Source of the DNA: Candidatus Nealsonbacteria bacterium
Lineage (GTDB): Bacteria > Patescibacteriota > Minisyncoccia > Minisyncoccales > RBG-13-42-11
NCBI GenBank assembly: GCA_026396115.1
Contig: JAPLXL010000005.1
Location: forward strand, 137,316 to 201,315
Length of the DNA stretch: 64,000 nucleotides
Reading direction: 5' to 3'
Of the stretch, positions 2,640-55,876 are shown in pieces. The notes below the pieces were generated by a model, which saw nothing but the letters and a program-made list of their open reading frames with translations, was not told the DNA's origin and searched no databases. Position 1 is the first letter of the stretch. Each line of letters begins with the position of its first letter. Both the position numbers and the translations under genes were made by a program.

Positions 2640-2930
2640 ATGATTACAAAAAAAGAGTTGCGACGTATCGCAAAATTAGCCAGACTCAGTATAACCAAAG
2701 ATGAGGAAGAGAGGTTTACAAAGGAGCTTTCTTCGATTTTGAATTATGTTGAAAAGTTAAAAGAAGCAGATGTTTCCGGGGTTGAGCCAACCAGTCATCC
2801 ATTTGGTGTTGAAAACGTGATGAGGAGTGATAAAAATAAAAAATTTGCGAAGTCAAAAAAATTATTAGAATTGGCGCCGGAAACCAAAGACGGTTATTTA
2901 AAAGTAAAGTCAATCTTTGAAATAAATTGA
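2640..2930 (+). CDS. gatC: Asp/Glu-tRNA(Asn/Gln) amidotransferase subunit C
   Basis: Start MITKKELRRIAKLARLSITKDEEERFTKEL typical of GatC; lies immediately upstream of gatA. Confidence 0.8.
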   Translation: MITKKELRRIAKLARLSITKDEEERFTKELSSILNYVEKLKEADVSGVEPTSHPFGVENVMRSDKNKKFAKSKKLLELAPETKDGYLKVKSIFEIN

Positions 2931-3020
2931 AAATTTATTGAAAAGTGAAATGAATTGAAAATTCATTGAACTCAAAGGAGAAATGAATCGAAGATTCATT
3001 GAACTTTTAGAAGTTGGTTA

Positions 3021-10578: not shown

Positions 10579-10633
10579 TATATAGTTCTTAGCGTGTCGA
10601 AAAGAGCTTTAGCTCGCAAAAAAGGTTAAAAAC

Positions 10634-15842: not shown

Positions 15843-16746
15843 AAAAGAAGCTGAAAAAATCTTATTGGATTTAGGAAAAAGAATATCTAAAGAAAAACTT
15901 AAGCCTAAATTAGCCGTAATCCTGGTTGGCGAGGATAAAGCATCGAGGCTCTACATAAAATTAAAAAGAAAAGCGGCCAAAAAAATTAGTATAAAATTAG
16001 TTCTTTATAAGTTCAAAGAAGCCACAGTAGAAGAAAAAATTATTCAAAAAATAAAAACTTTAAACAATAATTCTTCAATTCATGGAATTATTGTTCAATT
16101 ACCTCTTCCTAAAAAATTCAACCAGAATAAAATTGTCGGGGCGGTAAATCCCAAAAAAGACGTTGACGGTTTTCAAAAAAACGGTTGGTTTCTGCCGGTA
16201 TTGCCTTCGGCAATTTTATTTACTATTAAAAAGGCAATGAAAACATCTTTCAAAAAAAAGAAGGTCGTGGCACTGGTAAATTCAAAGATTTTCGGGCAAA
16301 GGCTTAAATCTTTTTTTAAAAAAGAGGGAATAGAATTAGATTATATTTTAAGGAAAAAGCATTCTTTTACCGAGCTTCCGAGGGAAGCGAGCTCGAAGAA
16401 CATTCATTCTTCTCGACCCTTCGCTGCGACTCGGGTAGATGAAGAAGAAGATTTTATCTCTTCGACTTTTGAAAATAAAAATAAATTGAAAAGGGCAGAT
16501 ATTATTATTACAGTTTTGGGTTCCCCCAATGCAATTTGGGGTGATATGATAAAGAAGAAGGCAATTTTAATTGACGCCGGCATTAGTAAAATTGCAGCAA
16601 AAAAAGTGGTTGGCGACGTAAATAGAGAAAGCGTAAAAGAAAAAGCAGCTTTCTTAACTCCGGTACCAGGCGGCATCGGCCCCTTAACGGTCGCTTTATT
16701 ATTAAAAAACGTTTATTATGCGGCAAAATATAGCCAAGTTAATTGA
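15823..16746 (+). CDS. folD: bifunctional methylene-THF dehydrogenase/cyclohydrolase FolD, with an in-frame composite mini-element insertion
   Basis: N-terminal KLKPKLAVILVGEDKASRLYIKLKRKAAKK and C-terminal TPVPGGIGPLTVALLLKN; the inserted ~33-aa segment FTELPREASSKNIHSSRPFAATRVDEEEDFISS is a repeat copy. Confidence 0.8.
   Translation: MRIFNGKKEAEKILLDLGKRISKEKLKPKLAVILVGEDKASRLYIKLKRKAAKKISIKLVLYKFKEATVEEKIIQKIKTLNNNSSIHGIIVQLPLPKKFNQNKIVGAVNPKKDVDGFQKNGWFLPVLPSAILFTIKKAMKTSFKKKKVVALVNSKIFGQRLKSFFKKEGIELDYILRKKHSFTELPREASSKNIHSSRPFAATRVDEEEDFISSTFENKNKLKRADIIITVLGSPNAIWGDMIKKKAILIDAGISKIAAKKVVGDVNRESVKEKAAFLTPVPGGIGPLTVALLLKNVYYAAKYSQVN
16368..16466. repeat. composite mini-element (about 2 units), in-frame in folD
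   Basis: ttaccgagcttccgagggaagcgagctcgaagaacattcattcttctcgacccttcgctgcgactcgggtagatgaagaagaagattttatctcttcg. Confidence 0.7.
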
Positions 16747-18040: not shown

Positions 18041-19693
18041 ATGTATAAACCAATTATCGGCCTGGAAACCCACGTAGAATTAAATACAAAAACAAAGATG
18101 TTTTGTTCTTGTCCGAACGATCCTGATGAAAAAAGGCCTAATGTTAATATCTGTCCGACATGTACTGCGCAACCGGGGACGCTTCCTGTGATAAACGAAG
18201 AGGCAGTAAAAAAGGTAATAAAAACCGGTTTAGCTTTAAATTCTCAAATTCCCGAATACTCCAAATTTGACAGAAAGAATTATTTTTATCCCGATTTACC
18301 AAAAGGTTATCAGATTTCTCAATTGTATCAGCCTCTCTGCAAGGAGGGATTTTTGGAAATTGATGGAAGAAAAATTAGGATAAGAGAGGTTCATTTAGAA
18401 GAAGACACTGGCAGATTAGTTCACCCCGAAGGTGCAGACTATTCTTTGGTTGATTTTAATCGCGCCGGGATTCCTTTAATGGAATTGGTTACCGAGCCCG
18501 ACATTACTTCAGCCAAAGAAGCAAGAAAGTTCGCTGAAACCCTGCATTTAATTTTGCACTATCTTGATGTTTCCGATGCCGATATGGAAAAAGGCCAAAT
18601 GCGAGTGGAGGTTAATATTTCTCTTACCGAACTTTCGCGCAGCGAAAGCGAAGGTGAAGAAGAGGATTTATCCTCTTCGTCCACCGAGCTTCCGTTTACG
18701 GAAGCGAAGGTGAAGAAGAGTACGAAGAAAAGTTTTTCTTCTTTCGTCTCGTCTTCGACTCGACGAACGAAGTTCTCTTCGCCCAGCAAAAATGAAAAAT
18801 TGGGCACAAAAGTTGAAATTAAAAATTTAAATTCTTTTCGGACAGTAGAGCGAGGGATTGATTACGAAATTAAGCGGCAGACGGAATTGCTGGAATCCGG
18901 CAAAAAGATTGTTCAGGAAACGCGCGGCTGGGACGATGTTAAAGGAATAACCGTCAGTCAAAGAGAAAAAGAAGAAGCTCATGATTATAGATATTTTCCC
19001 GAGCCGGATTTGCCGCCGCTTCATTTTTCAAAAGAATTTGTTCAAAAAATTAAATCTGAAATTCCGGAGCTTCCCACCCAAAGAAGGGAGCGCCTTAAAA
19101 AAGAATATGGTTTATTGGACAAAGAGGCTGAAATTTTTGTTTATCATAAAAATTTAGGAGAATATTTTGAAAAAGTAGTATCCGAACTGCCGCCCAATCT
19201 GTCACAGGAAAAACTTTCAAAACTAATTAAACTCACCTCTAATTATTTAATTTCCGACTTGCAGGGATTATTAAAAGGACAATCGGTTACCGAGCGAAGC
19301 GAGGTGAAGAAGAGGGCAAAGCCCTCCTCGCCTGACGCCAAGAACTTTTTAATTACTCCGGAAAATTTCGCTGAATTCATCACCTTAATCTACGATGGAA
19401 AAATTTCCAGTAAGATTGCCAAAATGGTGCTCTTGGAAATGTTTAAAATCGGAGCCGACCCTTCAAATATTATTGAAGAAAAGGGATTAACTCAGATTAC
19501 CGACAAAACCGAGATTGAAAAAATTATTGAAGAGGTGATTAATAATAATCCAAAACCGGTAGAGGATTACAAATCAGGAAAAGAAACCGCTTTCCAATTT
19601 TTAGTTGGCCAAATAATGGCAAAATCAAAAGGAAAAGCCAATCCTCAAATCGTAAATAGACTCTTAAAGGAAATCTTGACAAAAACAAAATAA
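18041..19693 (+). CDS. gatB: Asp/Glu-tRNA amidotransferase subunit B, with two in-frame mini-element insertions (one ~55 aa composite)
   Basis: GLETHVELNTKTKMFCSC N-terminus and C-terminal YqeY-like domain; the inserted low-complexity segments ([32 protein letters not shown]...; TERSEVKKRAKPSSPDAK) are repeat copies. Confidence 0.9.
   Translation: MYKPIIGLETHVELNTKTKMFCSCPNDPDEKRPNVNICPTCTAQPGTLPVINEEAVKKVIKTGLALNSQIPEYSKFDRKNYFYPDLPKGYQISQLYQPLCKEGFLEIDGRKIRIREVHLEEDTGRLVHPEGADYSLVDFNRAGIPLMELVTEPDITSAKEARKFAETLHLILHYLDVSDADMEKGQMRVEVNISLTELSRSESEGEEEDLSSSSTELPFTEAKVKKSTKKSFSSFVSSSTRRTKFSSPSKNEKLGTKVEIKNLNSFRTVERGIDYEIKRQTELLESGKKIVQETRGWDDVKGITVSQREKEEAHDYRYFPEPDLPPLHFSKEFVQKIKSEIPELPTQRRERLKKEYGLLDKEAEIFVYHKNLGEYFEKVVSELPPNLSQEKLSKLIKLTSNYLISDLQGLLKGQSVTERSEVKKRAKPSSPDAKNFLITPENFAEFITLIYDGKISSKIAKMVLLEMFKIGADPSNIIEEKGLTQITDKTEIEKIIEEVINNNPKPVEDYKSGKETAFQFLVGQIMAKSKGKANPQIVNRLLKEILTKTK
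18625..18785. repeat. composite mini-element (about 3 units, ~160 bp), in-frame in gatB
   Basis: Contains accgaactttcgcgcagcgaaagcgaaggtgaagaagaggatttatcctcttcg, then accgagcttccgtttacggaagcgaaggtgaagaagag, then degenerate repeats. Confidence 0.7.
19287..19333. repeat. mini-element copy, in-frame in gatB (second site)
   Basis: taccgagcgaagcgaggtgaagaagagggcaaagccctcctcgcctg. Confidence 0.65.
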
Positions 19694-20185: not shown

Positions 20186-20224
20186 GGAGGGAAGACTGAA
20201 TTCAGTTTCCCCTCCTTATTTTTT
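20186..20224. terminator. bidirectional intrinsic terminator between the convergent ORF 19775-20173 and miaB-miaA
   Basis: Long hairpin ggagggaagACTGAATTCAGTttcccctcc flanked by an A-run (5') and a T-run (3'). Confidence 0.5.
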
Positions 20225-22256
20225 CCAAAAACGCTTTTGTTAGTTTTTCAGCCTTCTTGTAATTTTTAAACCAATGAATGCGGTCATCTTTCTTAAACCA
20301 GGTTAATTGCCTTTTGGCGAAATGTTCAATTTCTTTTTGAAGGAGATTAATCATTTCGTCGTATTCCAATTTTTTTTGAAGATATTGCGCGATGAAACGA
20401 TATTCCAAGCCAAATTCTTCAAGTCGTTTCCAGAAAATTCCTGCTTTGCGGAGTTTTTTTACTTCCTCAATCATTCCTTCCCCTTTTAATCTTCTTAAAA
20501 GTCGTTTATTTATTAGTTTTTTCAATTCTTCTTTTTCTTTTTTAATTCCTAACATTAAAACAGGATAGGGAAGAGGATTTTTTTTGGAAACAGGCACCGG
20601 TTTTTTTGTTTTAATCACAATTTCCAAAGCCCTGATTAATCTTCTTCTGTTGTTCTTATCAATTGTTTTTGCCCTTTTTGGGTCAAGTTTTTTCAATCTA
20701 TTAAAAAGCTCATCCGTGCTTAGTTGTTCGAGATTCGATCTCAATCGCCAATCTGGTTTTACTTCGGGGATGACTATTCCGTCTAATACGGCTTGAATAT
20801 AAAATCCAGTTCCCCCGCACAAAATCGGAATTTTTCCTTTCTTAAAAATTTTATTTATTGTTTTAATTGCCAGCTTTTTGTATTGAACAACAGTAAATCT
20901 TCTTTTTGGACTGGCTACATCTAAAAGATAATGTGAGATATTCTGCATTTCTTTTTTGGTTATTTTGCCGGTACCGATATCCATTCCTTTATAAACTTGC
21001 CTTGAATCAGCTGAAATTACTTCTCCATTGAATTTTTTGGCTAATCTTACTGCTAATTCCGATTTTCCTGAGGCAGTGGGCCCTAGAATAACAATCAATT
21101 TTTTCAATGGACTAACTCCGGGTTTTATATCGTTGGGTTTTTCAGCATATTGTTGAATTATTTCTCTTAATATTTTTTCTCTTTTCTTTTTTTCTATTAA
21201 AGGGACACTGTCTTTCATTTTGAAAGCGGCGGTTCCCGAACGAGGGGAGTATTTGGAAATATAAGCCCAGTCAAATTTATTTTTTTTGAATAATTTTACC
21301 GTATTCCGGAACTGTTTTTTGGTTTCTCCGGGGAATCCGACAATTGCATCTGTTGAAAGTTTAACTGGCGTGATTTTGGCCCGTATTTTTTTGACCAGAT
21401 TTTTATATTCTTTTACAGAATAATTTCTGTTCATTTTTCTTAAAATTTTGTCATCCCCGGACTGGACAGGCAAATTTATATATTTTCCGAATTTTTTACA
21501 ATTAACTAAAGTATCAATCAGTTCATCGGAAAAATTACTGGGGTGAGGAGAGGTGAAAAGAATTTTAAAATCACCGGGAATATCATCAGTCATTTTTAAA
21601 AGTTTAGCAAAATTAATTTTGGGATTGGTAGGCGAAGAGGATATATCCTCTTCTTCACCCTTCGCTGCGGCTCGAGTAGGTGATTGATAATCATTAACAT
21701 TTTGGCCCAAAAGCCAAATCTCTTTGAAGCCATTTTTTACTGCGTTTTCTACTTCCTTTAAAATTTCTTTATGGTCGCGGCAAACTAGAGGTCCTCGCAC
21801 AAATGGAACAACACAATAAGAGCAGAAATTATTGCAGCCATTAGAAATAGGAACAAAAGCCATCGATTTTTCTCGGTATTTAGTCAAAGAGCTAAAATCC
21901 TTTTCTTTACCCTTCGTTGCGGCTCGGGTTGGTGAATACTTTAATAAATCTTTAAACTTTAAAATTTGATCAAATCCCTTAGCAAATTTTTGTCTATCTT
22001 TTTTTAAAATACAACCCGTGAGAATAGTTTTAAGTTTTGGTTTTTTGTTTTTAAGCGTTTTAAATTTGTGTAATAATCCATAAACCCTATCCACTGCCGA
22101 TTGTCTGACAGAACACATATTAACCAGAATCAAATCCGCCCCATCTTTTTTTGGGGCCTCTTTATAGCCCTTTCTTTCTAAAGCAACAGCAATCCGCTCA
22201 GAATCAGCTTTATTCATCTGGCAGCCGTATGTAATTATAAAATATTTACCCTGCAT
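20202..22256 (-). CDS. fusion protein: MiaB-like radical-SAM methylthiotransferase (N-terminal ~385 aa, TRAM domain absent) fused to tRNA dimethylallyltransferase MiaA (C-terminal ~300 aa); two mini-element insertions in the MiaB part
   Basis: N-terminus MQGKYFIITYGCQMNKADSE (UPF0004) and radical SAM CNNFCSYCVVP; C-terminus LIVILGPTASGKSELAVRLAKKFNGEVISADSRQVYKGMDIGTGK (MiaA P-loop). Inserts encode SPTRAATKGKEKDFSS and SPTRAAAKGEEEDISSSPT. Confidence 0.75.
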   Translation of the reverse strand: MQGKYFIITYGCQMNKADSERIAVALERKGYKEAPKKDGADLILVNMCSVRQSAVDRVYGLLHKFKTLKNKKPKLKTILTGCILKKDRQKFAKGFDQILKFKDLLKYSPTRAATKGKEKDFSSLTKYREKSMAFVPISNGCNNFCSYCVVPFVRGPLVCRDHKEILKEVENAVKNGFKEIWLLGQNVNDYQSPTRAAAKGEEEDISSSPTNPKINFAKLLKMTDDIPGDFKILFTSPHPSNFSDELIDTLVNCKKFGKYINLPVQSGDDKILRKMNRNYSVKEYKNLVKKIRAKITPVKLSTDAIVGFPGETKKQFRNTVKLFKKNKFDWAYISKYSPRSGTAAFKMKDSVPLIEKKKREKILREIIQQYAEKPNDIKPGVSPLKKLIVILGPTASGKSELAVRLAKKFNGEVISADSRQVYKGMDIGTGKITKKEMQNISHYLLDVASPKRRFTVVQYKKLAIKTINKIFKKGKIPILCGGTGFYIQAVLDGIVIPEVKPDWRLRSNLEQLSTDELFNRLKKLDPKRAKTIDKNNRRRLIRALEIVIKTKKPVPVSKKNPLPYPVLMLGIKKEKEELKKLINKRLLRRLKGEGMIEEVKKLRKAGIFWKRLEEFGLEYRFIAQYLQKKLEYDEMINLLQKEIEHFAKRQLTWFKKDDRIHWFKNYKKAEKLTKAFLEKIRRGN
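21631..21682. repeat. mini-element copy, in-frame in miaB-miaA
   Basis: ggcgaagaggatatatcctcttcttcacccttcgctgcggctcgagtaggtg. Confidence 0.75.
21903..21934. repeat. partial mini-element copy, in-frame in miaB-miaA
   Basis: ttctttacccttcgttgcggctcgggttggtg. Confidence 0.6.
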
Positions 22257-22816: not shown

Positions 22817-22869
22817 TTTACCGAGCTTCCGAAGGAAGCGAAGGTGAAGAAGAATAAATATTCTTCGCC
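22817..22869. repeat. mini-element copy (intergenic)
   Basis: ttaccgagcttccgaaggaagcgaaggtgaagaagaataaatattcttcgcct. Confidence 0.75.
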
Positions 22870-24529: not shown

Positions 24530-26308
24530 TTATTTAATTTTAGCTAAAAATTTGTTTAATTTCATCAAACCAATATCTCCTTCTCCCCTTTTTCTTATTC
24601 TAACCGATTTTGTTTCTAATTCTTTATCTCCAACTACCAGTAAATAGGGGATTTTTTGAATTTCTCCTTCCCGGATTTTTCTTGAAACGGTTTCATTTTC
24701 ATCTTTTATAACATTGCGAATTTGCCCGAATTTACCACTAATTTCACTAATTTTTTTTGAAACCTCTCGAGCGTATTTTTCGTGTTTTGAACCCACCGGA
24801 ATAATCCAGATTTGTTCGGAAGAAAGCCAAAAGGGCAGAGCGCCGGAATAATATTCAAGTAAAACCCCAATAAATCTTTCCAGGGAGCCCAAAAGGGCGC
24901 GGTGAATCATGATTGATCTTTGTTTTTCTCCTTTTTTATTGATATAGTTGACATCAAATCTTTCTGGCAAATTAAAGTCAACTTGAATTGTGGTGCATTG
25001 CCATTCTCTTTCTAAAGCGTCTTTAATTTTTATATCAATTTTCGGACCGTAAAATGCGCCACCACCTCTATCAACTTCGTATTTCAAATTCAGTTTTTCT
25101 AAAGCGTATCTCAGAGAATTTTCGGCTTTTTTCCAAATTTTTGGATTCCCTACATATTTTTCAGGTTGAGTAGAAAGATAAACATTAAGTTCTTTGAAGC
25201 CAAATGTTTTCAATATTTTAAAAGTCAATTTAAGGGCTGAGACAAGTTCATCGGAAAGTTGTTCTGGAGTACAAAAGATATGAGCATCGTCTTGGCTTAT
25301 CTGTCTTACCCGGACCAAGCCGTGTAATGTTCCCGATTTTTCATAGCGATAGACCGTTCCCATTTCAGTATAACGCAGAGGCAGATTTTTATAACTTCTA
25401 ATTTTGGTTTTGTAAATAGCAATATGAAAAGGACAATTCATCGGCTTTATTTGATAATCATCTTTTTCTTCTTTGCCGATTTCTGCCATATGAATAGGAG
25501 GCATCATATTCTCTTTATAAAAATCAGTATGCCCCGAAACTTTCCAAAGATTTAATTTGGCTATATGAGGAGTATCTACCAATTGATAACCATTTTTCAA
25601 ATATTCATCTAAAGCGTAATCCATAATAATTTTCTTTAATAATGCTCCTTTGGGGTGCCACAAAATCAATCCCGGTCCGATATTTTCATCGATATGAAAT
25701 AAATCCAATTTTTGGCCTAAAATTCGGTGATCTCTTTTTTCGGCTTCAGCTTCTTTTGAAAAATGATTTTGCAATTCTTTTTTGGTTTGAAAAGCAATTC
25801 CGTAGATTCTGGTCAGCATCAAGTTTTTTTCGGAACCCCTCCAGTATGCTCCGGCAATTTTAGTTAATTTAAAAGCATCCGGATTAATTTCTTTTGTAGA
25901 TTTCAGATGAGGTCCCAAACATAAATCAATAAATTTTCCAGATTCATAAACAAATATGGGTTGCTTGGCTAAGCTAGGCGAAGAGAACTTCGTTCTCTTC
26001 TTCACCTTCGCTTCTTGCGGAAGCTCGGTGAGCAATTCTAATTTATAGGGTTGATTCTTGAATATCTTTTTAGCTTCGGATTTGGTAATAATTTTCTTTT
26101 TAAAGACAATATTCTGTCTTATGATTTCTTTCATTTTCTTTTCAATTTTTGGTAGATCTTCAGGCGCGACGCTTTTTGACAAATCAAAATCGTAGTAAAA
26201 CCCATTTTCAATTGCAGGCCCAATACCAAACTTGGTTCCGGGATATAATTCCTGGACCGCAGCAGCTAAAATATGGGCAAGGGAATGACGAATAGTTTCA
26301 ATTTTCAT
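24530..26308 (-). CDS. thrS: threonyl-tRNA synthetase (lacks the N-terminal TGS domain), with an in-frame mini-element insertion
   Basis: HSLAHILAAAV editing-domain zinc motif, class II catalytic core, C-terminal anticodon-binding domain; insert VKKRTKFSSPSLAKQ. Confidence 0.85.
   Translation of the reverse strand: MKIETIRHSLAHILAAAVQELYPGTKFGIGPAIENGFYYDFDLSKSVAPEDLPKIEKKMKEIIRQNIVFKKKIITKSEAKKIFKNQPYKLELLTELPQEAKVKKRTKFSSPSLAKQPIFVYESGKFIDLCLGPHLKSTKEINPDAFKLTKIAGAYWRGSEKNLMLTRIYGIAFQTKKELQNHFSKEAEAEKRDHRILGQKLDLFHIDENIGPGLILWHPKGALLKKIIMDYALDEYLKNGYQLVDTPHIAKLNLWKVSGHTDFYKENMMPPIHMAEIGKEEKDDYQIKPMNCPFHIAIYKTKIRSYKNLPLRYTEMGTVYRYEKSGTLHGLVRVRQISQDDAHIFCTPEQLSDELVSALKLTFKILKTFGFKELNVYLSTQPEKYVGNPKIWKKAENSLRYALEKLNLKYEVDRGGGAFYGPKIDIKIKDALEREWQCTTIQVDFNLPERFDVNYINKKGEKQRSIMIHRALLGSLERFIGVLLEYYSGALPFWLSSEQIWIIPVGSKHEKYAREVSKKISEISGKFGQIRNVIKDENETVSRKIREGEIQKIPYLLVVGDKELETKSVRIRKRGEGDIGLMKLNKFLAKIK
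25977..26031. repeat. mini-element copy, in-frame in thrS
   Basis: ggcgaagagaacttcgttctcttcttcaccttcgcttcttgcggaagctcggtga. Confidence 0.75.
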
Positions 26309-32222: not shown

Positions 32223-34805
32223 ATGCAAAAGAAACTCACAAAATTTATTGTTATCTTTTGTTTATTTTTGCTTTTTCTGTTTCTCTCTTTAACTACCCAA
32301 GTCGCAGTGCAGGGTGAAGAAGAGAATTTATTCTCTTCGCCCGCTTTGGCTCAAGAAAGTAAATTAGAGGTTGAATATCCGGAAATCAAAGGAATAAAAC
32401 CGGAAACGGTGACAACCGAACTGCCGGAATATGTAAGATATGTCTTTAATTTTAGCATAATAATTGCGGGTTTAGTTCTTTTTGGAGCTTTAATTTACGG
32501 AGGAGTAAAATATTTAACCTCAACCGGCAACCTGCCTGCTCTGATAGACGCCAGAGAGCAAATTTTGGCAGCTTTTTTGGGAATAATAATTTTACTTTCT
32601 TCTTATATAATTTTAACCACTATTAATCCCCAGTTAATAGTTTTTAATCTTCCCGAACTTGAAAAAGCAGAAATATTATGTAGAAATGATGATGACTGCC
32701 TCGGAGATCTTATATGTATAGAAGAAAAATGTGTTGAAGCACCCTGCGAGAAAGACGAAGATTGTCCGGGTTTTCCGGACTATGTTTGCAAATTACCAGA
32801 GGGAGTCTGCGTTTATGAAGGAAAGACTTTGATTGTTTATGAAATTCCTTTAGGCCGAATAATTGACGAAGGAGTCTGGGAGGAAGATAGGACTAAAGAA
32901 ACGGAAGATTTAATTAAAGATTTTGAAAAATTTCTTAAAGAGGAAATAAAAGTAAATCCAACTTTTAATCAGATTGCTGATTTGAATAAATATTTAAAGA
33001 CCTTGACAGAGGAATGCCAATGCGGTAATTTGGATGCTTTTTGTACCAAACCCTGGGAATGGAGTATGTCGATTGGTTGCAGCGGAGATCCTTGTAAAGA
33101 AAAACTAGAGGGGACAATCGGAGGCATTGTAGTCGGTGAAAAAACCACCAGAGAAAAAATGGAAGATGTTTTGAAAATCAATGAAGAAAAGATGAAAAAA
33201 CTTTTGGAGTTTTTAGAGAAAATCAAAGAAAAGAAAACGGTCTTCGAAAATCAACTGAATAAATTCTCCAAAGGGTTGGAAGATGCAATGGATTGTCTAA
33301 AACAAAGTAGGGAGTTATACACTTTCAAGGAGCATTTAGCTAGGGTTCAATATTATGAAGATCTTGGCTGGAACGTAAAGATCGTACAGGGTATTTTAGA
33401 AGCAAAAGCGGACCCCTTTACTTTTTACTGTTCGGTTGGAGGACCAATAATGGATTATCCCTATTTGTCGGAAATAGAATTTTCTCCGGAAGAATTCGAA
33501 TCTGTCGAAATTCCGGAGAAACTAGAAAAGCCGGAACCAATAAGCTGTCCGATTGGGATTCCAATAAGTGTAATTTTAGAACAAAGTGGCGGATTAGGAG
33601 TGGCACTGATTAACAAAATGGATGGATTAATTTATTGGATAGACGAGATGAATAAAGAAATCAGAAATATGGCTGATTTCGTTTCTCAATGCAACGAGCA
33701 AAATTGCAAAATTAATTGCGCCTGTATCCCGAATCCTTGCTTTGGTAGTCTATTACCCTGGTGTTTGTTTTTTTCTCCTGCATCTCGCTGTCTTCAGGCA
33801 ATTGGTCAATGCAGCGGTGATCCCTGTCCTTACCCGGAAATTGGAGAAACCTCAGAAAAAATTAAAAAAAATGAAGATGAGATTTTTTTACTTTTAGAAG
33901 AAATAAAAGAAATCTTCCCCAAAGTCAATGAAATTGTGAAAGTAGGCACGGAAGATGCTCTAGACCTGAAAGACATAACCTGGGCAGTTGAATTCTGTTC
34001 CGGTCCTGTGACTGAAACAGAACCACCGACCTGGTTTATGTCAGATTGTTCAATGGCTCTGGGAAGTTATGGGCCGGGCGGTCAAGTAATCGGCGATTGT
34101 CATCCCTGGGATTTCTTTTGTTGTACTCAGTCAAAAGAAGCTTTGAGGGAGGTACCTTCTTTGCCTCCGACGCTTCGAAAACTGGGACCTCGTGTTGGCC
34201 CGGAAGGTCCGGAAGAACCCACGCCTTCAGAATTAGCTAAAAGTTCAATTCCGGCAATGTCTTCGCCGCCTCTCAAGACAGGCGAAGTTAGCTGTCTAAA
34301 ACAGAGCGATCCTCGTTGGGGAAACAAATTATTTGGTCCTTGCCCGCCAGGCGGTACTTATACTGACGCAGGTTGCGGACCTTCTTCTTTAGCAATGGCA
34401 ATTAGTTATTTTCAAAACAAAGAAATTCTTGTTGATACAATCGGGGAAAAAATTGTTGAAAAAGGTTTAAGAAATTGCGACAGCGGCTCAAGCCCTAGCA
34501 TAATGACAGTTATTCCGTCACTATATGGATTATCTTCATATGAAATTAAACCGTTTGCCTTTGAAAACTGGAAAGAAGAAGTAAAGAAATGCTTTGATGA
34601 AGGAGGGTTAATTACTGCTCTAATGGCTGGCCCCAGTAAGTTTACTGCAGGCAGCGGACATTTTATAGCGCTAACTGACATAACCGATGATTATGCTTAT
34701 ATTACGGTAAATGATTCATCCAAAAGAATCTGCCCCAGACAGGAGTTATTAAAAGATGTTTTTAAGTTCAAAAAACAACCGGGTATTTGGTGTATAAAAA
34801 AATGA
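32223..34805 (+). CDS. large secreted/membrane-anchored Cys-rich protein: signal peptide, VirB2/TrbC-like two-helix pilin-like domain, Cys-rich modules, C-terminal C39-like cysteine peptidase domain
   Basis: N-terminal signal peptide; TTELPEYVRYVFNFSIIIAGLVLFGALIYGGVKYLTSTGNLPALIDAREQILAAFLGIIILLSSYIILTTINPQL has two TM helices; the C-terminus carries ...DAGCGPSSLAMAISYF... and ...GSGHFIALTDITDD... (C39-type Cys/His motifs). A mini-element copy is inserted near the N-terminus. Confidence 0.5.
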   Translation: MQKKLTKFIVIFCLFLLFLFLSLTTQVAVQGEEENLFSSPALAQESKLEVEYPEIKGIKPETVTTELPEYVRYVFNFSIIIAGLVLFGALIYGGVKYLTSTGNLPALIDAREQILAAFLGIIILLSSYIILTTINPQLIVFNLPELEKAEILCRNDDDCLGDLICIEEKCVEAPCEKDEDCPGFPDYVCKLPEGVCVYEGKTLIVYEIPLGRIIDEGVWEEDRTKETEDLIKDFEKFLKEEIKVNPTFNQIADLNKYLKTLTEECQCGNLDAFCTKPWEWSMSIGCSGDPCKEKLEGTIGGIVVGEKTTREKMEDVLKINEEKMKKLLEFLEKIKEKKTVFENQLNKFSKGLEDAMDCLKQSRELYTFKEHLARVQYYEDLGWNVKIVQGILEAKADPFTFYCSVGGPIMDYPYLSEIEFSPEEFESVEIPEKLEKPEPISCPIGIPISVILEQSGGLGVALINKMDGLIYWIDEMNKEIRNMADFVSQCNEQNCKINCACIPNPCFGSLLPWCLFFSPASRCLQAIGQCSGDPCPYPEIGETSEKIKKNEDEIFLLLEEIKEIFPKVNEIVKVGTEDALDLKDITWAVEFCSGPVTETEPPTWFMSDCSMALGSYGPGGQVIGDCHPWDFFCCTQSKEALREVPSLPPTLRKLGPRVGPEGPEEPTPSELAKSSIPAMSSPPLKTGEVSCLKQSDPRWGNKLFGPCPPGGTYTDAGCGPSSLAMAISYFQNKEILVDTIGEKIVEKGLRNCDSGSSPSIMTVIPSLYGLSSYEIKPFAFENWKEEVKKCFDEGGLITALMAGPSKFTAGSGHFIALTDITDDYAYITVNDSSKRICPRQELLKDVFKFKKQPGIWCIKK
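32302..32350. repeat. mini-element copy at the N-terminus of the 860-aa surface protein
   Basis: gggtgaagaagagaatttattctcttcgcccgctttggc. Confidence 0.6.
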
Positions 34806-42938: not shown

Positions 42939-43250
42939 ATGACTGAAACAAAAGGAAACGATAAAGAATTCCTTGAGTATTTAGTGAAGGCTTTAGTTGA
43001 TAACCCAGAAGATGTCAAAATCGACCGCAAGGTTGATGAAATGGGAGTTTTGCTTTCTTTGAAAGTGAACTCCGAAGATATGGGTCAGATTATCGGCAAA
43101 GCCGGTTCTACTGCCAGAGCAATTAGAGGTTTGGTTCGAATTGTCGGTCTTAAAAATCACGCCAGAGTGAATTTGAAGATCGAAGAACCGGAAGGTGGCA
43201 GAGAAACTCGAGAAATAAAAACAGAATCTATTGAAGATTTAAAGTTGTAA
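42939..43250 (+). CDS. khpA: KH-domain RNA-binding protein KhpA (UPF0109), copy 1, with a C-terminal extension
   Basis: LVKALVDNPEDVKIDRKVDEMGVLLSLKVNSEDMGQIIGKAGSTARAIRGLVRIVG; classic position between rpsP and trmD. Confidence 0.7.
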   Translation: MTETKGNDKEFLEYLVKALVDNPEDVKIDRKVDEMGVLLSLKVNSEDMGQIIGKAGSTARAIRGLVRIVGLKNHARVNLKIEEPEGGRETREIKTESIEDLKL

Positions 43251-44039: not shown

Positions 44040-44070
44040 GAAAATTTGTGATAAAATAATTAAATACCGA

Positions 44071-44115
44071 AATGAATCGCAGTTCATTGAAGGTTGAAAT
44101 AAATCAAAGATTCAT
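44071..44115. promoter_or_regulatory. two tandem 7-5-7 palindromes (AATGAAT-N5-ATTCATT family) immediately upstream of tRNA-Tyr
   Basis: gaaatgaatcgcagttcattgaa and a degenerate gaaataatcaaagattcattgaa; the same motif occurs at 2921-3000 and 54027-54045. Confidence 0.5.
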
Positions 44116-44120
44116 TGAAT

Positions 44121-46938: not shown

Positions 46939-47280
46939 TTGTTAAAATTAACACTTATGGCAAAAGCAACTATTGACAAAGAATTTCTTGAATACATTAT
47001 TAAAGGCCTAGTTGACTACCCCGATGATGTAAAAGTTGAAAGAAAAGTTGACGAGATGGGTGTTTTGCTCAGTTTGAAAGTCAACTCCGAAGATATGGGT
47101 CAGATTATCGGAAAGGAAGGTTCAACTGCTCGGGCAATAAGAAACCTTATTAGAATTGTAGGTCTCAAAAATCATGCCCGGGTTAACTTAAAGATTGAAG
47201 AACCAGAAGGCAGAGTAGCTGAAGTAAGAAAAGCTCCTGCCCGAAAGAAAGAAAGCGATTTGGATAGTTTAAATCTTTAA
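46939..47280 (+). CDS. khpA: KhpA paralog (copy 2) with a different C-terminal extension
   Basis: VDEMGVLLSLKVNSEDMGQIIGK is identical to copy 1, but the DNA carries many synonymous differences (an old duplicate or xenolog). Confidence 0.65.
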   Translation: MLKLTLMAKATIDKEFLEYIIKGLVDYPDDVKVERKVDEMGVLLSLKVNSEDMGQIIGKEGSTARAIRNLIRIVGLKNHARVNLKIEEPEGRVAEVRKAPARKKESDLDSLNL

Positions 47281-47354
47281 GTCTAAGGTTTACATCAAGA
47301 GAAAGCGGTGCTACTATGAAAAGGTGGTACCGTTTTTTCGTATCTCTATTATTA

Positions 47355-47427
47355 GCCTGGGTAGCTCAGTTGGCAGAGCACGTCTTTGGTAAAGACGAGG
47401 TCGCCGGTTCAATCCCGGCCTCAGGCT
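47355..47427 (+). tRNA. tRNA-Thr (anticodon GGT), CCA not encoded
   Basis: Acceptor GCCTGGG/CTCAGGC, anticodon stem-loop CGTCT-TTGGTAA-AGACG, T-arm GCCGG-TTCAATC-CCGGC. Confidence 0.75.
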
Positions 47428-47485
47428 CCCGAGCGATAGTAAAGAGGAGAGAAGAGAATTTATCCTCTACGAACTCATAAAAAAT

Positions 47486-47750: not shown

Positions 47751-49298
47751 ATGAACAAAAAGATAATTTTAATAATCATTATCATTATTTTGGTAACCTT
47801 TGGCGTTTATCGAGTTTTTTTAAAAGAAAAAAAACCTGAGTTTAATTTGATTGAGGTGGTTCGGGGAGACATCGTCCAAGAAATTTTTGAAAGCGGCCAA
47901 GTTGGAAGGGGAGAAAAAATAAACCTTATCTTTGAAAACGCCGGAAAAATTGAAAAAATTTATGCCGGGGTGGGCGATGAGGTTAAGGCTGGCCAGGAAT
48001 TGGCAAAGCTGGACACCAGCAATCTTTATATTCAGCTTCAGGATGTTCAAACCGGCCTTGAATTAGCTCAACTAAACTTAAATAAGTTATTGGCCGGTGC
48101 CGGTCCGGAAGAAATTAAAATTACTGAAACCCAACTGGAAAACGCCGAAATTACCTTAGGGATTGCCAAAGAAAATTTAAAAAATAGCTATGAAACAGCC
48201 ATAACTGTTTCAGATGGTTCTTATCCTCAAATTTATAACGCTCTAGATTTTGTAAAAGAATTTGTCGGAGAATACATTAATATCTATGACGAAGACGGTA
48301 GAACAATAATGCGTGCCAGAGATGAAATAGAAAGAGCAGAAGCGGAAGCAAAACTTTATTTAGGGATTGCAAAAAATAATTTAAACAATGATAAAAATAT
48401 TGAAACTGCTCTTTTAATAATGAAAAACTCTCTTGAGACAGCTTTTGACAGCTTAGAAACAATCCGTGAAATTGCCGATAAATCAGCTATTTATCGAGAA
48501 AGAGTTTCGGCAGCTGACAAGGCTTCTTTGGATACCCTGAAAACAAATATTAATGGAGCCCTGACTAATGTTATTGGCGTCCAACAAACAATCTCTTCAA
48601 TGAAATCAAACGTTGAGACGGCGCAAACAAAACTTCAAGAGGCTGAGAGCCGTTTAGATTTAATCAAAGCCGAAGTCCGCCAAGTGGATATTGATTTGTC
48701 TGAAGCCCAGATAAGACAAGCTCAAACCCGGGTACAATTTTACGAAAATCAAATTCAGCAATCAAAACTTATCAGTCCGGCTGCCGGCAAAATCATTGAA
48801 ATTAAAAAGAGAATCGGGGAATTGGTTCAGCCGACCTCGCAGGACGTTGTCATCGTTGTTTTGCCCATCGCCCCTTATGAAATAAAAGTAGACATTTACG
48901 AGGAAGACGTGATTGAAATAAGCGTCGGCAATTCGGTTGAAATTACTTTGGTTGCCTTTCCGGATAAAAAAATTGAAGGGAGGGTTATCTCAATAAGTCC
49001 GGCAGAAAAAATAGTTGACGGCGTGGTTTATTATGAAACAACTATTGGTTTTGAAGAAATGCTCAAGGCGATAAAGCCCGGCATGACCGCAGACGTTATT
49101 ATTCAAGCTGATTTAAAAGAAAATGTTCTGATTATTTCCAGAGATGCAATTCAAGAAAAAGATGACAAAACAATAGTTGAAGTTTTTAAAAATGGGCAGA
49201 TTCAGGAAAGAGATATTGAAATTGGATTGAGGGGGAGCAACGATATGGTAGAAGTGCTTTCCGGTCTTGAAGAGGGAGAAAAAGTAATTCAAAGATAG
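47751..49298 (+). CDS. HlyD-family periplasmic adaptor / membrane-fusion protein (MacA-like)
   Basis: N-terminal TM, long coiled-coil hairpin region, lipoyl/beta-barrel motifs (ISPAAGKIIEIKKRIGELV; GMTADVIIQ). Confidence 0.7.
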   Translation: MNKKIILIIIIIILVTFGVYRVFLKEKKPEFNLIEVVRGDIVQEIFESGQVGRGEKINLIFENAGKIEKIYAGVGDEVKAGQELAKLDTSNLYIQLQDVQTGLELAQLNLNKLLAGAGPEEIKITETQLENAEITLGIAKENLKNSYETAITVSDGSYPQIYNALDFVKEFVGEYINIYDEDGRTIMRARDEIERAEAEAKLYLGIAKNNLNNDKNIETALLIMKNSLETAFDSLETIREIADKSAIYRERVSAADKASLDTLKTNINGALTNVIGVQQTISSMKSNVETAQTKLQEAESRLDLIKAEVRQVDIDLSEAQIRQAQTRVQFYENQIQQSKLISPAAGKIIEIKKRIGELVQPTSQDVVIVVLPIAPYEIKVDIYEEDVIEISVGNSVEITLVAFPDKKIEGRVISISPAEKIVDGVVYYETTIGFEEMLKAIKPGMTADVIIQADLKENVLIISRDAIQEKDDKTIVEVFKNGQIQERDIEIGLRGSNDMVEVLSGLEEGEKVIQR

Positions 49299-49342
49299 TC
49301 GAAGAACGTTTGTTCTTCTCCACCCTTCGCTGCGGCTCGGGT
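49299..49342. repeat. mini-element copy (intergenic, HlyD - ABC ATPase)
   Basis: tcgaagaacgtttgttcttctccacccttcgctgcggctcgggt. Confidence 0.75.
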
Positions 49343-52371: not shown

Positions 52372-53427
52372 ATGAGGAAGCGTTTATTTTTTATTATCTT
52401 AATAATTATGATTGCTGCGATTTCTTTCTGGTTGATTTTTTTGCCAACAGAATCTTTCTCCAAAAAAGAGGTAATTTTTAGCGTGGAAATAGGAGAAGGG
52501 TCAAAAGACATTGCCCTGAACTTGGCAAAAGAAAATTTGATAAGATGGGCGTCAATGTTCAGAGTTTATGTTATGGTAAGAGGAATTGCCGGAGACCTTA
52601 AAGCCGGCCAATACCTATTGTCTCCTTCAATGAATATTCCCCAGATAGCAGAGAAACTTTTTAAGGGCGATGTAATAAAAGAAAAAATTACCATAATTGA
52701 GGGGTGGAGTTTGAGAACCATCGGTTTTTATTTTGAAGACAGGGGAATGTTCCAGGCCGAAGAAGTTTTGGACATGGCTGCCAAAGATTTTTCTGACGAG
52801 TTTGACTTTTTGAAAGATAAGCCAAAGAATTTAGGGTTGGAAGGTTATCTTTTCCCCGACACCTATGAGATAAGAAAAAATGAGAGTTTGGAAAATATCG
52901 TCAAAAAAATGCTAAGCAATTTTGACAGGAAATTAACATCCGATTTAAAGGAAGAAATCAAAAGGCAGCAAAAATCAATTTTTGAAATAGTGACAATGGC
53001 CAGCATCTTGGAAAAAGAAGTCAGAACTGTTGAGGATAAAAAGATTGTCTCCGGAATTTTCTGGAAAAAAATCAATAATGGTGAGCCGTTATATAGTTGT
53101 GCGACAATAGCTTATATTTTAGGAAGAGAAAATTGGACGTTCGAAGAAGATGAATCTTCTTCTCTCTCCCGCGTTGGCGCTTGGACGTTCGAAGAAATGA
53201 GAAGAGAAATTGCTTCGGGAAAAGATATTGATTCGCCTTATAATACATATAAATATCAGGGTCTTCCTCTGGGTCCCATTTCCAACCCCGGGCTTGAAAG
53301 CATAATGGCTACAATCTATCCCGAAGAGAGCGATTACCGGTATTATTTATCCACTCCTGAAGGAGAAACTATTTTTAGTAAAACCTTGGAAGAGCATAAT
53401 ATAGCCAAGGCAAAATATTTTGAGTAG
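52372..53427 (+). CDS. mltG: endolytic murein transglycosylase MltG (YceG-like), carrying a mini-element insertion flanked by a 16-bp target duplication
   Basis: N-terminal TM and YceG domain; the insert peptide EDESSSLSRVGA lies between duplicated WTFEE segments. Confidence 0.75.
   Translation: MRKRLFFIILIIMIAAISFWLIFLPTESFSKKEVIFSVEIGEGSKDIALNLAKENLIRWASMFRVYVMVRGIAGDLKAGQYLLSPSMNIPQIAEKLFKGDVIKEKITIIEGWSLRTIGFYFEDRGMFQAEEVLDMAAKDFSDEFDFLKDKPKNLGLEGYLFPDTYEIRKNESLENIVKKMLSNFDRKLTSDLKEEIKRQQKSIFEIVTMASILEKEVRTVEDKKIVSGIFWKKINNGEPLYSCATIAYILGRENWTFEEDESSSLSRVGAWTFEEMRREIASGKDIDSPYNTYKYQGLPLGPISNPGLESIMATIYPEESDYRYYLSTPEGETIFSKTLEEHNIAKAKYFE
53133..53195. repeat. degenerate mini-element copy in mltG flanked by a perfect 16-bp direct repeat (TTGGACGTTCGAAGAA)
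   Basis: ttggacgttcgaagaa-gatgaatcttcttctctctcccgcgttggcgc-ttggacgttcgaagaa. Confidence 0.7.
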
Positions 53428-53490
53428 GCGAAGAGGATAAATCCTCTTCTTCACTTTCACTTTCACTTTCGCTACGCGAAAGCTCGGTAA
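53427..53490. repeat. mini-element copy ending at the DJ-1 start codon, containing a (CACTTT)3 micro-expansion
   Basis: ggcgaagaggataaatcctcttcttcactttcactttcactttcgctacgcgaaagctcggtaa. Confidence 0.75.
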
Positions 53491-54036
53491 ATGCCAAACT
53501 TACAAGAGAAAAAAATTGCGATAATCATTGCCTTTCGGGATTTTCGGGACGAAGAATATTTTACTCCAAGAGAAATTTTAGAGAAAGCCGGGACTGAAAT
53601 AAAAACCGTCTCAAACAAAATTGGAACTGCTATTGGCGCCGATGGGGGAGAAGTTGAGATTGACTTTTTAGTTTCTGAATTAAATTCGGCTGATTTTGAT
53701 GCAGTGATTTTTATTGGCGGGTCGGGATGCCTGAAAAATCTTGATAATGAAGATTCATACAAGATAGCGAGAGAAGCGGTCTCTCAAGATAAAGTTCTGG
53801 GAGCTATTTGTATTGCGCCAACAATTTTAGCCAAAGCCGGAGTCCTGTCCGGCAAAAAAGCGACGGTCTGGACAAGCCCGATGGATAAGTCAGCCGTTAA
53901 AATTTTAAAAGACAATGGAGCGGTTTTTGAGGATAATCCGGTGGTGGCAGACGGAAAAATTATTACGGGTTCTGGCCCTGAATCCGCCGAAGAATTTGCC
54001 ATGAAAATCATTGGACTCGAAGGTGAAATGAATTGA
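53491..54036 (+). CDS. DJ-1/PfpI family protein (class I glutamine amidotransferase-like)
   Basis: FDAVIFIGGSGC...AICIAPTILAKAGVLSGKKATVW nucleophile-elbow pattern. Confidence 0.75.
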   Translation: MPNLQEKKIAIIIAFRDFRDEEYFTPREILEKAGTEIKTVSNKIGTAIGADGGEVEIDFLVSELNSADFDAVIFIGGSGCLKNLDNEDSYKIAREAVSQDKVLGAICIAPTILAKAGVLSGKKATVWTSPMDKSAVKILKDNGAVFEDNPVVADGKIITGSGPESAEEFAMKIIGLEGEMN

Positions 54037-54080
54037 AAATTCATTGAGCTCTTGACAGGAATTTAAATTGATATAATATT
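54027..54080 (+). promoter_or_regulatory. 7-5-7 palindrome AATGAAT-TGAAA-ATTCATT abutting the -35 of the rplJ promoter (TTGACA ... TAATAT)
   Basis: Palindrome at 54027-54045 overlaps the stop of the upstream gene; TTGACA at 54053-54058; TAATAT at 54075-54080 (16-nt spacer). Confidence 0.45.
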
Positions 54081-54712: not shown

Positions 54713-54720
54713 ATTTTTAA

Positions 54721-54780
54721 TTACCGAGCTTTCGCGTAGCGAAAGCGAAGGTGAAGAAGAGGACGAAGTCCTCTTCGCCA
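54721..54780. repeat. mini-element copy (intergenic, rplJ-rplL), near-consensus
   Basis: ttaccgagctttcgcgtagcgaaagcgaaggtgaagaagaggacgaagtcctcttcgcca. Confidence 0.8.
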
Positions 54781-55362: not shown

Positions 55363-55390
55363 TTGCAAATTTTGTCGGAAACATACGATA
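55363..55390 (+). repeat. 27-bp direct repeat, copy 1 (ttgcaaattttgtcggaaacatacgata) at the 5' end of the MazG-like transcript
   Basis: 21-bp identical core aaattttgtcggaaacatacg shared with 55759-55786. Confidence 0.75.
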
Positions 55391-55416
55391 CATAAATAGA
55401 CGAAGAAGTGAAAAAT

Positions 55417-55755
55417 ATGAAACTAAACGAATATCAAAAACTTTGTAAAAGAACTGCCAAGAAATTCAACAGTAAAGAAAAAGAGATATTCACTTTGGGT
55501 CTGGGAATTGCAGGAGAATCAGGGGATGTCGCTGGTTGTATTAAAAAGACGTTTTCACATGGCGATAATCAAAAGAATGGAATAAGAGAGAATTTAGGCG
55601 ATACCATGTGGTACGTGGCGATGATTTGCGATTTCTTCGGTTGGAAGTTAGAGGATATTATGAAGGAAAATATTGAAAAGCTTAAAAAAAGACACCCCAA
55701 AGGTTTTTCTGAAAAAACTGCCAAAAAGGACAAGAGAAAAGACTGGAATGAATAA
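55417..55755 (+). CDS. MazG-like NTP pyrophosphohydrolase (small all-alpha type); alternative GTG start at 55408
   Basis: EYQKLCKRTA...LGLGIAGESGDVAG...LGDTMWYVAMICDFFGW resembles the MazG/HisE-like EExxE/D and WY motifs. Confidence 0.55.
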   Translation: MKLNEYQKLCKRTAKKFNSKEKEIFTLGLGIAGESGDVAGCIKKTFSHGDNQKNGIRENLGDTMWYVAMICDFFGWKLEDIMKENIEKLKKRHPKGFSEKTAKKDKRKDWNE

Positions 55756-55758
55756 ATA

Positions 55759-55786
55759 TTGTAAATTTTGTCGGAAACATACGGTA
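55759..55786 (+). repeat. 27-bp direct repeat, copy 2, upstream of upp
   Basis: ttgtaaattttgtcggaaacatacggta. Confidence 0.75.
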
Positions 55787-55787
55787 G

Positions 55788-55835
55788 TCGAAGAGATAAA
55801 TCTCTTCTTCACCTTTCATTGCGATTCGGGTACAT
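55788..55835. repeat. mini-element copy (intergenic, upstream of upp)
   Basis: gtcgaagagataaatctcttcttcacctttcattgcgattcgggtaca. Confidence 0.65.
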
Positions 55836-55876
55836 AAAGAAAATTAGTTCTTTTAATTAAAAAGGAGGTGATAGAT

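Follow-up and report, generated by a model that had tools for sequence, protein, structure and literature searches.

The window analyzed here, a stretch of 64,000 nucleotides (nt) from a Candidatus Nealsonbacteria bacterium (Patescibacteriota; assembly GCA_026396115.1, contig JAPLXL010000005.1, positions 137,316 to 201,315), carries many copies of a short double-hairpin DNA repeat, one of which sits in frame within mltG, the gene for a YceG-family endolytic transglycosylase, between two copies of a 16-nt direct repeat. We find that this mltG insert is a decayed copy of the double-hairpin family together with a duplication of host sequence, that the family is or was mobile, and that the long duplication at mltG is a one-off event and not a transposition signature of the family. 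On balance we read the family as a selfish repeat resembling the Rickettsia palindromic elements or the double-hairpin elements of fungal mitochondria, and give about even credence to the idea that it spreads by transposase-independent, microhomology-guided copying and is lost again through repeat-mediated events.

The 16-mer TTGGACGTTCGAAGAA occurs only twice in the window, at 53133-53148 and 53181-53196, with a spacer of 32 nt (53149-53180), giving the order aaa-TTGGACGTTCGAAGAA-gatgaatcttcttctctctcccgcgttggcgc-TTGGACGTTCGAAGAA-atg. An earlier note on this DNA had described a perfect 16-bp duplication at 53133-53195 around a 31-nt spacer; the exact pair of 16-mers stands, with the end corrected to 53196 and the spacer to 32 nt. 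One repeat plus the spacer amounts to 48 nt, or 16 codons, and keeps the frame of the mltG open reading frame (ORF; 52372-53427), the protein around the insert reading ...GRENWTFEE[DESSSLSRVGAWTFEE]MRREI... and the predicted insert-encoded peptide being DESSSLSRVGAW. Exact 16-mers recurring within 100 nt of each other were seen in two cases in the window (mltG and two tandem element copies in gatB) and in none of 100 Markov-shuffled windows; the direct repeat is real, and chance is excluded as its source. Because three independent assemblies from other samples carry this insert too (related loci L005, NCBI GCA_030692425.1, and L006 and L007, both from ENA), it is no assembly artefact. The features of the site, with coordinates in the window, are the following.

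52372 to 53427, plus strand: mltG, the host ORF, encoding a YceG-family endolytic transglycosylase of 351 amino acids (aa), identical to P0001 (MltG, Candidatus Nealsonbacteria, PF02618).
53133 to 53148, plus strand: upstream repeat copy TTGGACGTTCGAAGAA, codons W T F E E, the last 7 nt of which (CGAAGAA) are also the 5' end and stem of hairpin A (sequence comparison).
53143 to 53162, plus strand: hairpin A, GAAGAAGA-TGAA-TCTTCTTC, a perfect 8-bp stem with its 5' arm partly within the upstream repeat (hidden Markov model (HMM) match and fold).
53149 to 53180, plus strand: the 32 nt found in the insert only, covering hairpin A's 3' portion and module B, which is degenerate (alignment and fold).
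53171 to 53180, plus strand: mini-hairpin GCG-TTGG-CGC in degenerate module B (fold).
53181 to 53196, plus strand: downstream repeat copy, where the host sequence was originally TTGGACGTTCGATGAA; base 53193 is T>A in the window genome (L005, L006, L007 and all empty sites read GATGAA).

The site was compared at the nucleotide level with nine related loci (L001-L009), and protein-database matches were aligned. A single ENWTF(D/E)EMR, free of the extra 16 residues, is present in P0004 (95% identity over the aligned part), P0005 (90%) and about 10 more distant homologues, and a single WTFDE in homologues P0008-P0020 and in loci L001/L002, L003/L004 and L009, as the earlier note had predicted for an empty site; the close insert-free relatives of mltG have 92-95% nucleotide identity. 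Because relatives and distant MltG homologues carry one WTFDE at this position, the insert is derived, not ancestral. The proposal that WTFEE...WTFEE is an ancestral internal duplication or a native feature of the protein, for which there is a parallel at gatA, whose 11-nt element flank is a native heptamer tandem repeat, therefore retains next to no probability and is refuted for mltG: every insert-free MltG homologue has a single WTF(D/E)E, and the stretch that the repeats enclose matches a dispersed family.

The empty sites (L001/L002, L003/L004, L009) read AAT TGG AC(G/T) TT(C/T) GAT GAA ATG, and the filled sites in L005, L006 and L007 read TTGGACGTTCGA-AGAAGAT(A/G)AATCTTCTTCTCTC...GGCAC-TTGGACGTTCGA-TGAA, with insert flanks TTCGAAGAA...TTCGATGAA. 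In these three loci, TTGGACGTTCGA is thus followed by AGAA on the upstream side versus TGAA downstream, and GATGAA is found at every empty site. Since the downstream copy in L005, L006 and L007 and the empty sites all read GATGAA, the original duplication was 12 nt exact (16 with one mismatch), the ancestral insert-only stretch being 36 nt that begin at the A of AGAA. The perfect 16 nt in the window is secondary, produced by a later T>A change in the downstream copy (Asp to Glu). The earlier view that the host WTFEE codons were duplicated on insertion accordingly holds for 12 nt of host sequence and not for the perfect 16, and the ends of the duplication overlap the element consensus.

The mltG product matches PDB entries 4IIW, 8YQ7 and 2R1F, and when it is aligned with 4IIW, a solved YceG structure, the break falls exactly at the insert site. 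Between ALGEH and LEVDSPYNTY there are 8 residues in 4IIW, 14 in insert-free relatives and 30 in the window MltG; the insert site is a variable surface linker. An AlphaFold2 model of MltG was dropped as a means of locating the insert (mean predicted local distance difference test score 49), and the 4IIW sequence alignment served instead.

That the insert contains a mini-element copy, as had been claimed from the sequence, is confirmed by an HMM built without any mltG copy, which matches hairpin A at 53142-53164 (16.7 bits, E=2.7e-4); the stem variant of the mltG hairpin A is also seen in other family copies, and the 3' half of the copy is degenerate and unique to mltG copies. The family consensus is GGCGAAGAGGA-(TAAA or C-TTC-G)-TCCTCTTC-TTCACC(C)-TTCGC-(second hairpin, variable length)-GCTCGG(G)T, 45-62 nt in all. 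The window holds 22 copies (nhmmer E<=0.01), or about 27 with weaker partial matches, a density of about one copy per 2.5-3 kb (about 0.35-0.4 copies per kb). Hairpin A is paired in 97.5% of cells and 3 of its 8 pairs are changed on both sides, which none of 500 shuffles equaled; with stem variants such as GAAGAGGA/TCCTCTTC, GAAGAAGA/TCTTCTTC, GAAGAGAAC/GTTCTCTTC and GATGAAGA/TCTTCATC, among others, it has been kept paired through compensatory changes. Because the fold energy of the 64-nt mltG region is ordinary against shuffles (z=-0.7), we base the claim of structure on this family covariation and not on the mltG copy by itself.

Copies in the window are oriented 11 plus and 11 minus and fall in several reading frames. 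Fourteen of the 22 best copies lie within real protein-coding ORFs: gatA, pheT (three), glyA, folD, gatB (a cluster), a miaB-like gene (two), thrS, ORF 32223-34805 and mltG. A 15th copy scored as inside is in a spurious ORF beside tRNA-Thr, and trmD holds a weaker partial copy. Inserts within coding sequence measure 48, 48, 51, 54 and 66 nt, all multiples of 3, and intergenic ones 32, 44, 55, 62 and 65 nt, none of them multiples of 3; this looks like selection for reading-frame integrity rather than a mechanistic rule. Partial, merged and nested copies are present, as in the gatB and folD clusters and in L007 and L090, whose nested elements sit at the same internal element position. The family was found in 34 of 169 related loci with a narrow model, in a patchy distribution; a GatB-based scan of genome contigs reached relatives of only 50-69% aa identity, which were used for family distribution and are too distant for junctions. 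Presence/absence differences of family copies are frequent between relatives at 90-97% identity, and it is because of these many differences between close relatives that we regard the family as mobile now or in the past, in agreement with the earlier note. Searches of Rfam, run at gathering thresholds and again permissively, matched the elements to no family, and a scan of viral contigs for the hairpin A pattern gave one chance match only, in an unrelated G+C-rich contig.

Further copies in the window are listed here by coordinate.

2583 to 2637, plus strand: copy in the mreB-gatC spacer, with ends and a TA/AAATG-type target as in the 53427 copy and no duplication (filled/empty comparison).
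3770 to 3814, plus strand: in-frame copy in gatA, flanked by the 11-nt AATTGAAAATT at 3755-3765 and 3815-3825 (flank analysis).
7458 to 7504, plus strand: in-frame copy in pheT, peptide EEDKSSSLPFAAAW; absent from L167, and with a second element nested inside it in L090.
7753 to 7805, minus strand: in-frame copy in pheT, absent from L090 and L091, duplication 0 nt.
7965 to 8010, minus strand: in-frame copy in pheT, absent from L091, with CCTCC as a 5-nt repeat on either side; the L005 mltG copy has an identical hairpin A.
15724 to 15779, minus strand: in-frame copy in glyA (serine hydroxymethyltransferase, SHMT).
16393 to 16466, both strands: two copies, or parts of copies, side by side in folD, oppositely oriented and in frame.
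18626 to 18791, minus strand: tandem and partial copies clustered within gatB, in frame.
21631 to 21677, plus strand: copy in the miaB-like part of ORF 20202-22256, in frame and antisense to the host.
21883 to 21929, plus strand: copy antisense to host ORF 20202-22256.
22820 to 22869, minus strand: intergenic copy.
25977 to 26028, plus strand: in-frame antisense copy in thrS.
32295 to 32341, minus strand: in-frame copy near the start of ORF 32223-34805.
49298 to 49342, plus strand: intergenic copy, absent from L003, with a 3-nt junction repeat GAA.
53427 to 53488, plus strand: full-length 62-nt copy GGCGAAGAGGATAAATCCTCTTC...GCTCGGT, inserted exactly between the stop codon of mltG and the gene that follows, absent from five relatives.
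54723 to 54779, minus strand: copy in the rplJ-rplL spacer, absent from L005, with a junction repeat of 1 nt exact or 7 nt imperfect.
55787 to 55831, plus strand: intergenic copy with GGTA on each side.

Several of these loci merit a separate remark. The gatB region 18620-18800 holds at least 4 tandem or partial copies, and GatB is 550 aa long versus about 478 aa in 80 related genomes. ORF 20202-22256 (minus strand, 684 aa), with two element copies inside, encodes both MiaB-like domains (UPF0004 and radical SAM) and a MiaA isopentenyl pyrophosphate (IPP)-transferase domain, possibly as a gene fusion; a TRAM domain was not detected. An element copy at 47428-47468 lies directly 3' of tRNA-Thr (47354-47430) and overlaps its last bases. 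A MazG-like gene is bracketed by repeated 37-47-nt segments (55363-55409 and 55749-55840 in the window; L005 7470-7574), and the GGTA-flanked element stands upstream of this gene in L005 and downstream of it in the window, suggesting that the element moved or was duplicated with its flanks. Relatives also carry a subfamily of their own with another stem, GGCGATGAGCC-TTC-GGCTCATC (L003 8158-8205 and 940-1059; L005 526-591), one copy of which is a 48-nt in-frame insert in a PCMT methyltransferase gene; the corresponding window site (52313) is empty.

To characterize the junctions, filled/empty pairs were taken from relatives at 85-97% nucleotide identity (L003, L005, L090, L091, L167 and others), and the junction repeat was defined as the distance over which the gap can slide in the filled/empty alignment. 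Across 21 independent events its length was 0 nt in 8, 1 in 4, 2 in 1, 3 in 3, 4 in 3, 5 in 1 and 12 in 1, the last being mltG. Random positions give 0 in 53% and at least 3 nt in 8.2%; junction repeats of at least 3 nt are therefore enriched (8 of 21 vs 8.2% expected, P=1.5e-4), and their length is variable. The clean recent insertions (53427-53488, 2583, L167 14145 and L109 5397) have a duplication of 0 nt. The cleanest of them is the 53427-53488 copy, 230 nt downstream of the mltG insert, which lies between GAGTA and AAATG, turns the stop codon TAA into TAG, and is missing from five relatives that include L005 and L006, both of which have the mltG insert. Targets share only A+T-richness, with TA directly before the insertion point in about half of the clean events, and no conserved target tetranucleotide was found among the events. 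Two host nucleotides are deleted at 2585, extra bases occur at 54716 and 7755, and element boundaries vary, with terminal bases added or missing. Family insertions give no fixed-length target duplication.

Among the window copies, long flanking repeats are found only at mltG (16 nt) and gatA (11 nt). The gatA repeat was considered as a second long target-site duplication and rejected, insert-free homologues already having a 7-8-nt host tandem repeat there. The comparison (window 3750-3830 with the gatA loci of L113, L131, L135 and L163) concerns the linker before IGVPKEYF, which in many relatives is a 7-8-nt tandem repeat, e.g. five units of AAATTTC, KISNFKFQISNL. The element has hit this heptamer repeat independently in both orientations (the opposite one in L163), and the slippage-prone gatA repeat is an insertion hot spot.

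These junctions bear on classical transposition, in which a DDE-type transposase acting in trans would make a staggered cut of 12 (or 16) nt and insert a non-autonomous element, the mltG repeat being a true target-site duplication. A long exact repeat around an element, with a single copy at the empty site, would fit this mechanism, as would the presence/absence differences of the family, and the earlier note took the long duplication as a trace of transposition or replicative insertion. The 20 other events, however, have repeats of 0-5 nt, with 0 in the cleanest, and a search for flanking duplications at other copies, which that note had proposed, found none comparable, so that the outcome named there as counting against its reading is largely what was seen. 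Because the other copies are without comparable duplications, the one at mltG is not the signature of a staggered-cut transposase; a duplication of 12-16 nt is also beyond the usual range of bacterial insertion sequences. Nor does the family have terminal inverted repeats, its ends GGCGAAG... and ...GCTCGGT not being complementary and its inverted repeats being the internal hairpins, and the piece inserted at mltG would have to be a truncated element whose missing ends the host supplied by chance. Consistent with the claim that the window encodes no transposase, a Pfam search of its approximately 50 ORFs detected no transposase, integrase, reverse transcriptase or HUH domain. A staggered-cut transposase at mltG is unlikely, and DDE-type transposition as an account of the whole is very improbable. 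The non-transposase mechanism that had been offered as a fallback is the better reading.

A different kind of enzyme in trans, one that recognizes hairpins in single-stranded DNA (ssDNA; a TnpA of the IS200/IS605 type, a tyrosine transposase associated with repetitive extragenic palindromes (REP), known as RAYT, or similar), would make the mltG duplication a repair accident. Such enzymes insert without duplication, which suits the clean insertions with identical ends, often after TA, and each element has two subterminal hairpins, paired through compensatory changes, and no terminal inverted repeats. The hairpin loops on one strand moreover read C-GNA-G, a motif that forms very stable DNA mini-hairpins. 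When the features of IS200/IS605 elements were examined one by one, subterminal hairpins, a lack of terminal inverted repeats and a lack of target-site duplication in clean insertions were all found, but a conserved tetra- or pentanucleotide target and a lagging-template strand bias were not: orientation is 11:11 though the window is transcribed mostly one way, and the targets have no tetranucleotide in common. Element boundaries are inconsistent at 7755 and 54716, partial or merged copies are numerous, and neither an HUH nor a Y1 domain was found in the window. We consider an ssDNA enzyme unlikely, though deserving of some weight.

The anatomy of the mltG junctions points instead to copying guided by microhomology. 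The duplicated host bases overlap the element consensus ends, by CGA on the left and TTGG on the right, and only the ACGTT of the duplication is unambiguously host-only. On the left, host ...TTCGA(T)GAA and the element 5' end CGAAGAA agree at 6 of 7 positions, and the host supplies part of the 5' arm of hairpin A; on the right, host TTGG matches the element 3' end GCT(T/C)GG, copies 7458 and 32295 reading GCTTGGGT or ACTTGGGT. Bases shared by host and element also occur elsewhere: TAC at 7755 and L127, CCC at the nested L090 element, and, at 7962, a CC on each end of the 5-nt repeat. Under the mechanism that we propose, a nascent DNA strand would leave the host template at TTCGA, which matches the element 5' CGAAGA, copy an element located elsewhere in the genome, and re-anneal, through the TTGG at the element 3' end, to the matching host TTGG, which lies 12 nt upstream of its point of departure. 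Because the strand would return 12 nt upstream, the host stretch would be copied twice. Return at, behind or ahead of the departure point could yield 0 duplication, duplications of 1-12 nt, or small host deletions, respectively, and selection would retain only those copies that keep the frame, have no stop codon and lie in tolerant loops.

A further route would be RNA-mediated, with hairpin transcripts copied by a resident reverse transcriptase (of the group II intron, diversity-generating retroelement or retron type) and integrated by target priming. Duplications of differing length, loss of target bases and microhomology at the junctions are typical products of such integration, and the events here show all three: duplications vary from 0 to 12 nt, small stretches of target are missing at L008 and 2585, and the junctions have microhomology. 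Genomes of the Candidate Phyla Radiation (CPR) frequently encode reverse transcriptases, and copies lie within transcribed genes. An RNA-mediated route has also been suggested for the GC clusters of yeast mitochondria (PMC4478555). Against it, the window holds no reverse transcriptase gene, copies occur in both orientations relative to their host genes, no 3' tail or other retro-element hallmark is seen, and nothing sets an RNA route apart from DNA-level template switching; we judge it improbable.

Microhomology-guided copying is itself subject to several reservations. The microhomologies are only 3-4 nt long, and GAAGAA is a common coding word here. Many events are unpolarized with respect to insertion or deletion, so the enrichment of junction repeats partly reflects deletions. 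The clean insertions share the exact ends GGCGAAG...GCTCGGT and A+T-rich TA/A targets, as an end-recognizing enzyme would also give, and such a trans-acting enzyme may be encoded elsewhere, the 64 kb examined being part of a contig of at least 225 kb. The template switch is read from the junction anatomy, and neither an intermediate nor a donor was found. Lastly, L007 has the mltG insert at about 80% identity (80% aa) to the window, though closer relatives are without it, and this sharing calls for loss, recombination or recurrent insertion.

Loss and recombination both have observable counterparts in these populations. The filled locus L122 has two empty counterparts, a clean one in L118 and, in L108, a 48-nt deletion between two GAAG words that left element AGGC behind and removed host TAATT; because of this footprint allele next to a clean empty allele, slippage deletion between short repeats can be said to occur here. 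At mltG, the flanking repeat together with the hairpin would make the insert prone to precise loss by slippage, which would account for near-identical alleles differing by 48 nt alone: empty L001 and filled L006 are 99.3% and 99.6% identical on either side of the site. The gene is also a recombination mosaic among relatives, with discordant segment identities. Across the 5' part, the segment beside the site and the 3' part, L009 is 82%, 93% and 87% identical to the window, and L008 is 90%, 76% and 95% identical to L009. This discordance in the aligned segments indicates frequent homologous recombination among these populations. The mltG allele of L007 has a second element nested in the first, and that of L008 has a near-consensus element, with the GRENWT codons gone and flanks agreeing at only 8 of 12 positions; the L008 copy may be orthologous to the window insert or independent. 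The insert is common to a sub-lineage and polymorphic between almost identical alleles, and the simplest account of its history is an old insertion followed by precise loss via the 12-16-nt repeats flanking the hairpin, or by allele exchange through recombination; recurrent insertion at the site may also have taken place.

Compared with described systems, the family is a new one of a known kind, selfish hairpin repeats that invade coding sequence, and a member of none of those considered here. In behavior the family matches the Rickettsia palindromic elements (RPEs; Ogata et al. 2000, 2002), selfish palindromes that sit in frame within housekeeping genes (PMC10969869). The two share a non-coding palindromic nature, the lack of a transposase of their own, in-frame positions in unrelated housekeeping genes of a small genome, the addition of a short peptide in tolerated regions, and additional copies between genes. 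RPEs are about 100-150 bp long and occur in Rickettsia, whereas the present elements are 45-62 nt and belong to Candidatus Nealsonbacteria, of another phylum (Patescibacteria/CPR), reach a much higher density, and occupy several frames and both orientations. The lack of any Rfam match is a further difference, and size, host and this negative set the family apart.

Two adjacent G+C-rich hairpins in an A+T-rich genome, situated between and inside genes and varying in presence among close relatives, also recall the double-hairpin elements of fungal mitochondria (Paquin et al. 2000; PMC10085805), which move by an unknown mechanism (PMC10085805). Those elements are organellar, however, with unrelated sequences, and they are not mainly characterized by inserting in frame into many protein genes. 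The GC clusters of yeast mitochondria (Weiller 1989; Wu and Hao 2015, PMC4478555) are likewise short palindromic mobile units that merge, nest and shuffle, with very short flanking repeats and presence/absence patterns among near-identical genomes that misfit simple cut-and-paste, but they are organellar and have a consistent 2-3-nt repeat (AG or ACT), in contrast to 0-12 nt here (PMC4478555). The likeness to either mitochondrial system is at most an analogy, the present family residing on a bacterial CPR chromosome. REP/REPIN-RAYT systems and palindromes derived from IS200/IS605 are similarly hairpin-based, have no terminal inverted repeats and typically no target duplication; REPs, however, are extragenic, strand-biased and accompanied by a Y1/HUH gene, whereas these copies are mostly intragenic and 11:11 in orientation, with no such gene in the window. 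[quoted passage not shown]

Other repeats are present in and around the window. A second, unrelated family of hairpin mini-repeats, GAAATGAATTGAAAATTCATTGA, occurs at 2914-3006, 6710-6751, 44063-44120 and 54012-54048, as three tandem 33-nt units after gatC and single copies elsewhere. It too is polymorphic, 54014-54045 being absent in L003, 44063-44117 in L003 and L005, and one tandem unit in L090, and the copy at 54014 gives a DJ-1/PfpI gene a different C-terminus and stop. A third, G+C-rich family of CTACGACCCTCCCACCACCCTCCCGTAAGCTCGCCCCTC-like inserts, 39-45 nt long, is found in relatives, in frame in pheT and nearby (L090 10559-10597, L103 11725, L126 3594, L127 3369, L128 12186), with the window sites empty. 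Two KhpA-like KH-domain genes (42939-43250 and 46939-47280) share a 236-nt repeat with 76% identity, and two relatives lack a 67-nt segment at the 3' end of gyrB (10545-10611) that contains the long inverted repeat ACACGCTAAGAA...TTCTTAGCGTGT.

In conclusion, literature searches for MITE-like or hairpin repeats in CPR/Patescibacteria turned up nothing relevant within the searchable literature, and such a repeat family seems to be undescribed in this group. CPR genomes are very small and streamlined, yet this one tolerates a mini-repeat every 2.5-3 kb, mostly in essential genes, among them those for aminoacyl-tRNA synthetases, GatCAB, folate enzymes and MltG. The mltG site offers a clean, polarized example with empty, filled and nested alleles, in which a peptide-adding insert is gained or lost between near-identical genomes, and its junctions argue against ordinary transposition. 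For annotation, unexplained inserts of 15-25 residues in CPR proteins may be repeat-derived, and the family provides a natural data set for the transposase-independent spread of hairpin DNA. More speculatively, and with less confidence than we attach to the reading of the family itself, CPR/Patescibacteria might carry self-propagating double-hairpin DNA that has no dedicated transposase, spreads by template switching or by host repair or reverse transcription, and survives preferentially as in-frame loops in essential genes; it could thereby be a general source of lineage-specific peptide inserts in CPR proteins, made reversible by the microhomologies that flank them.

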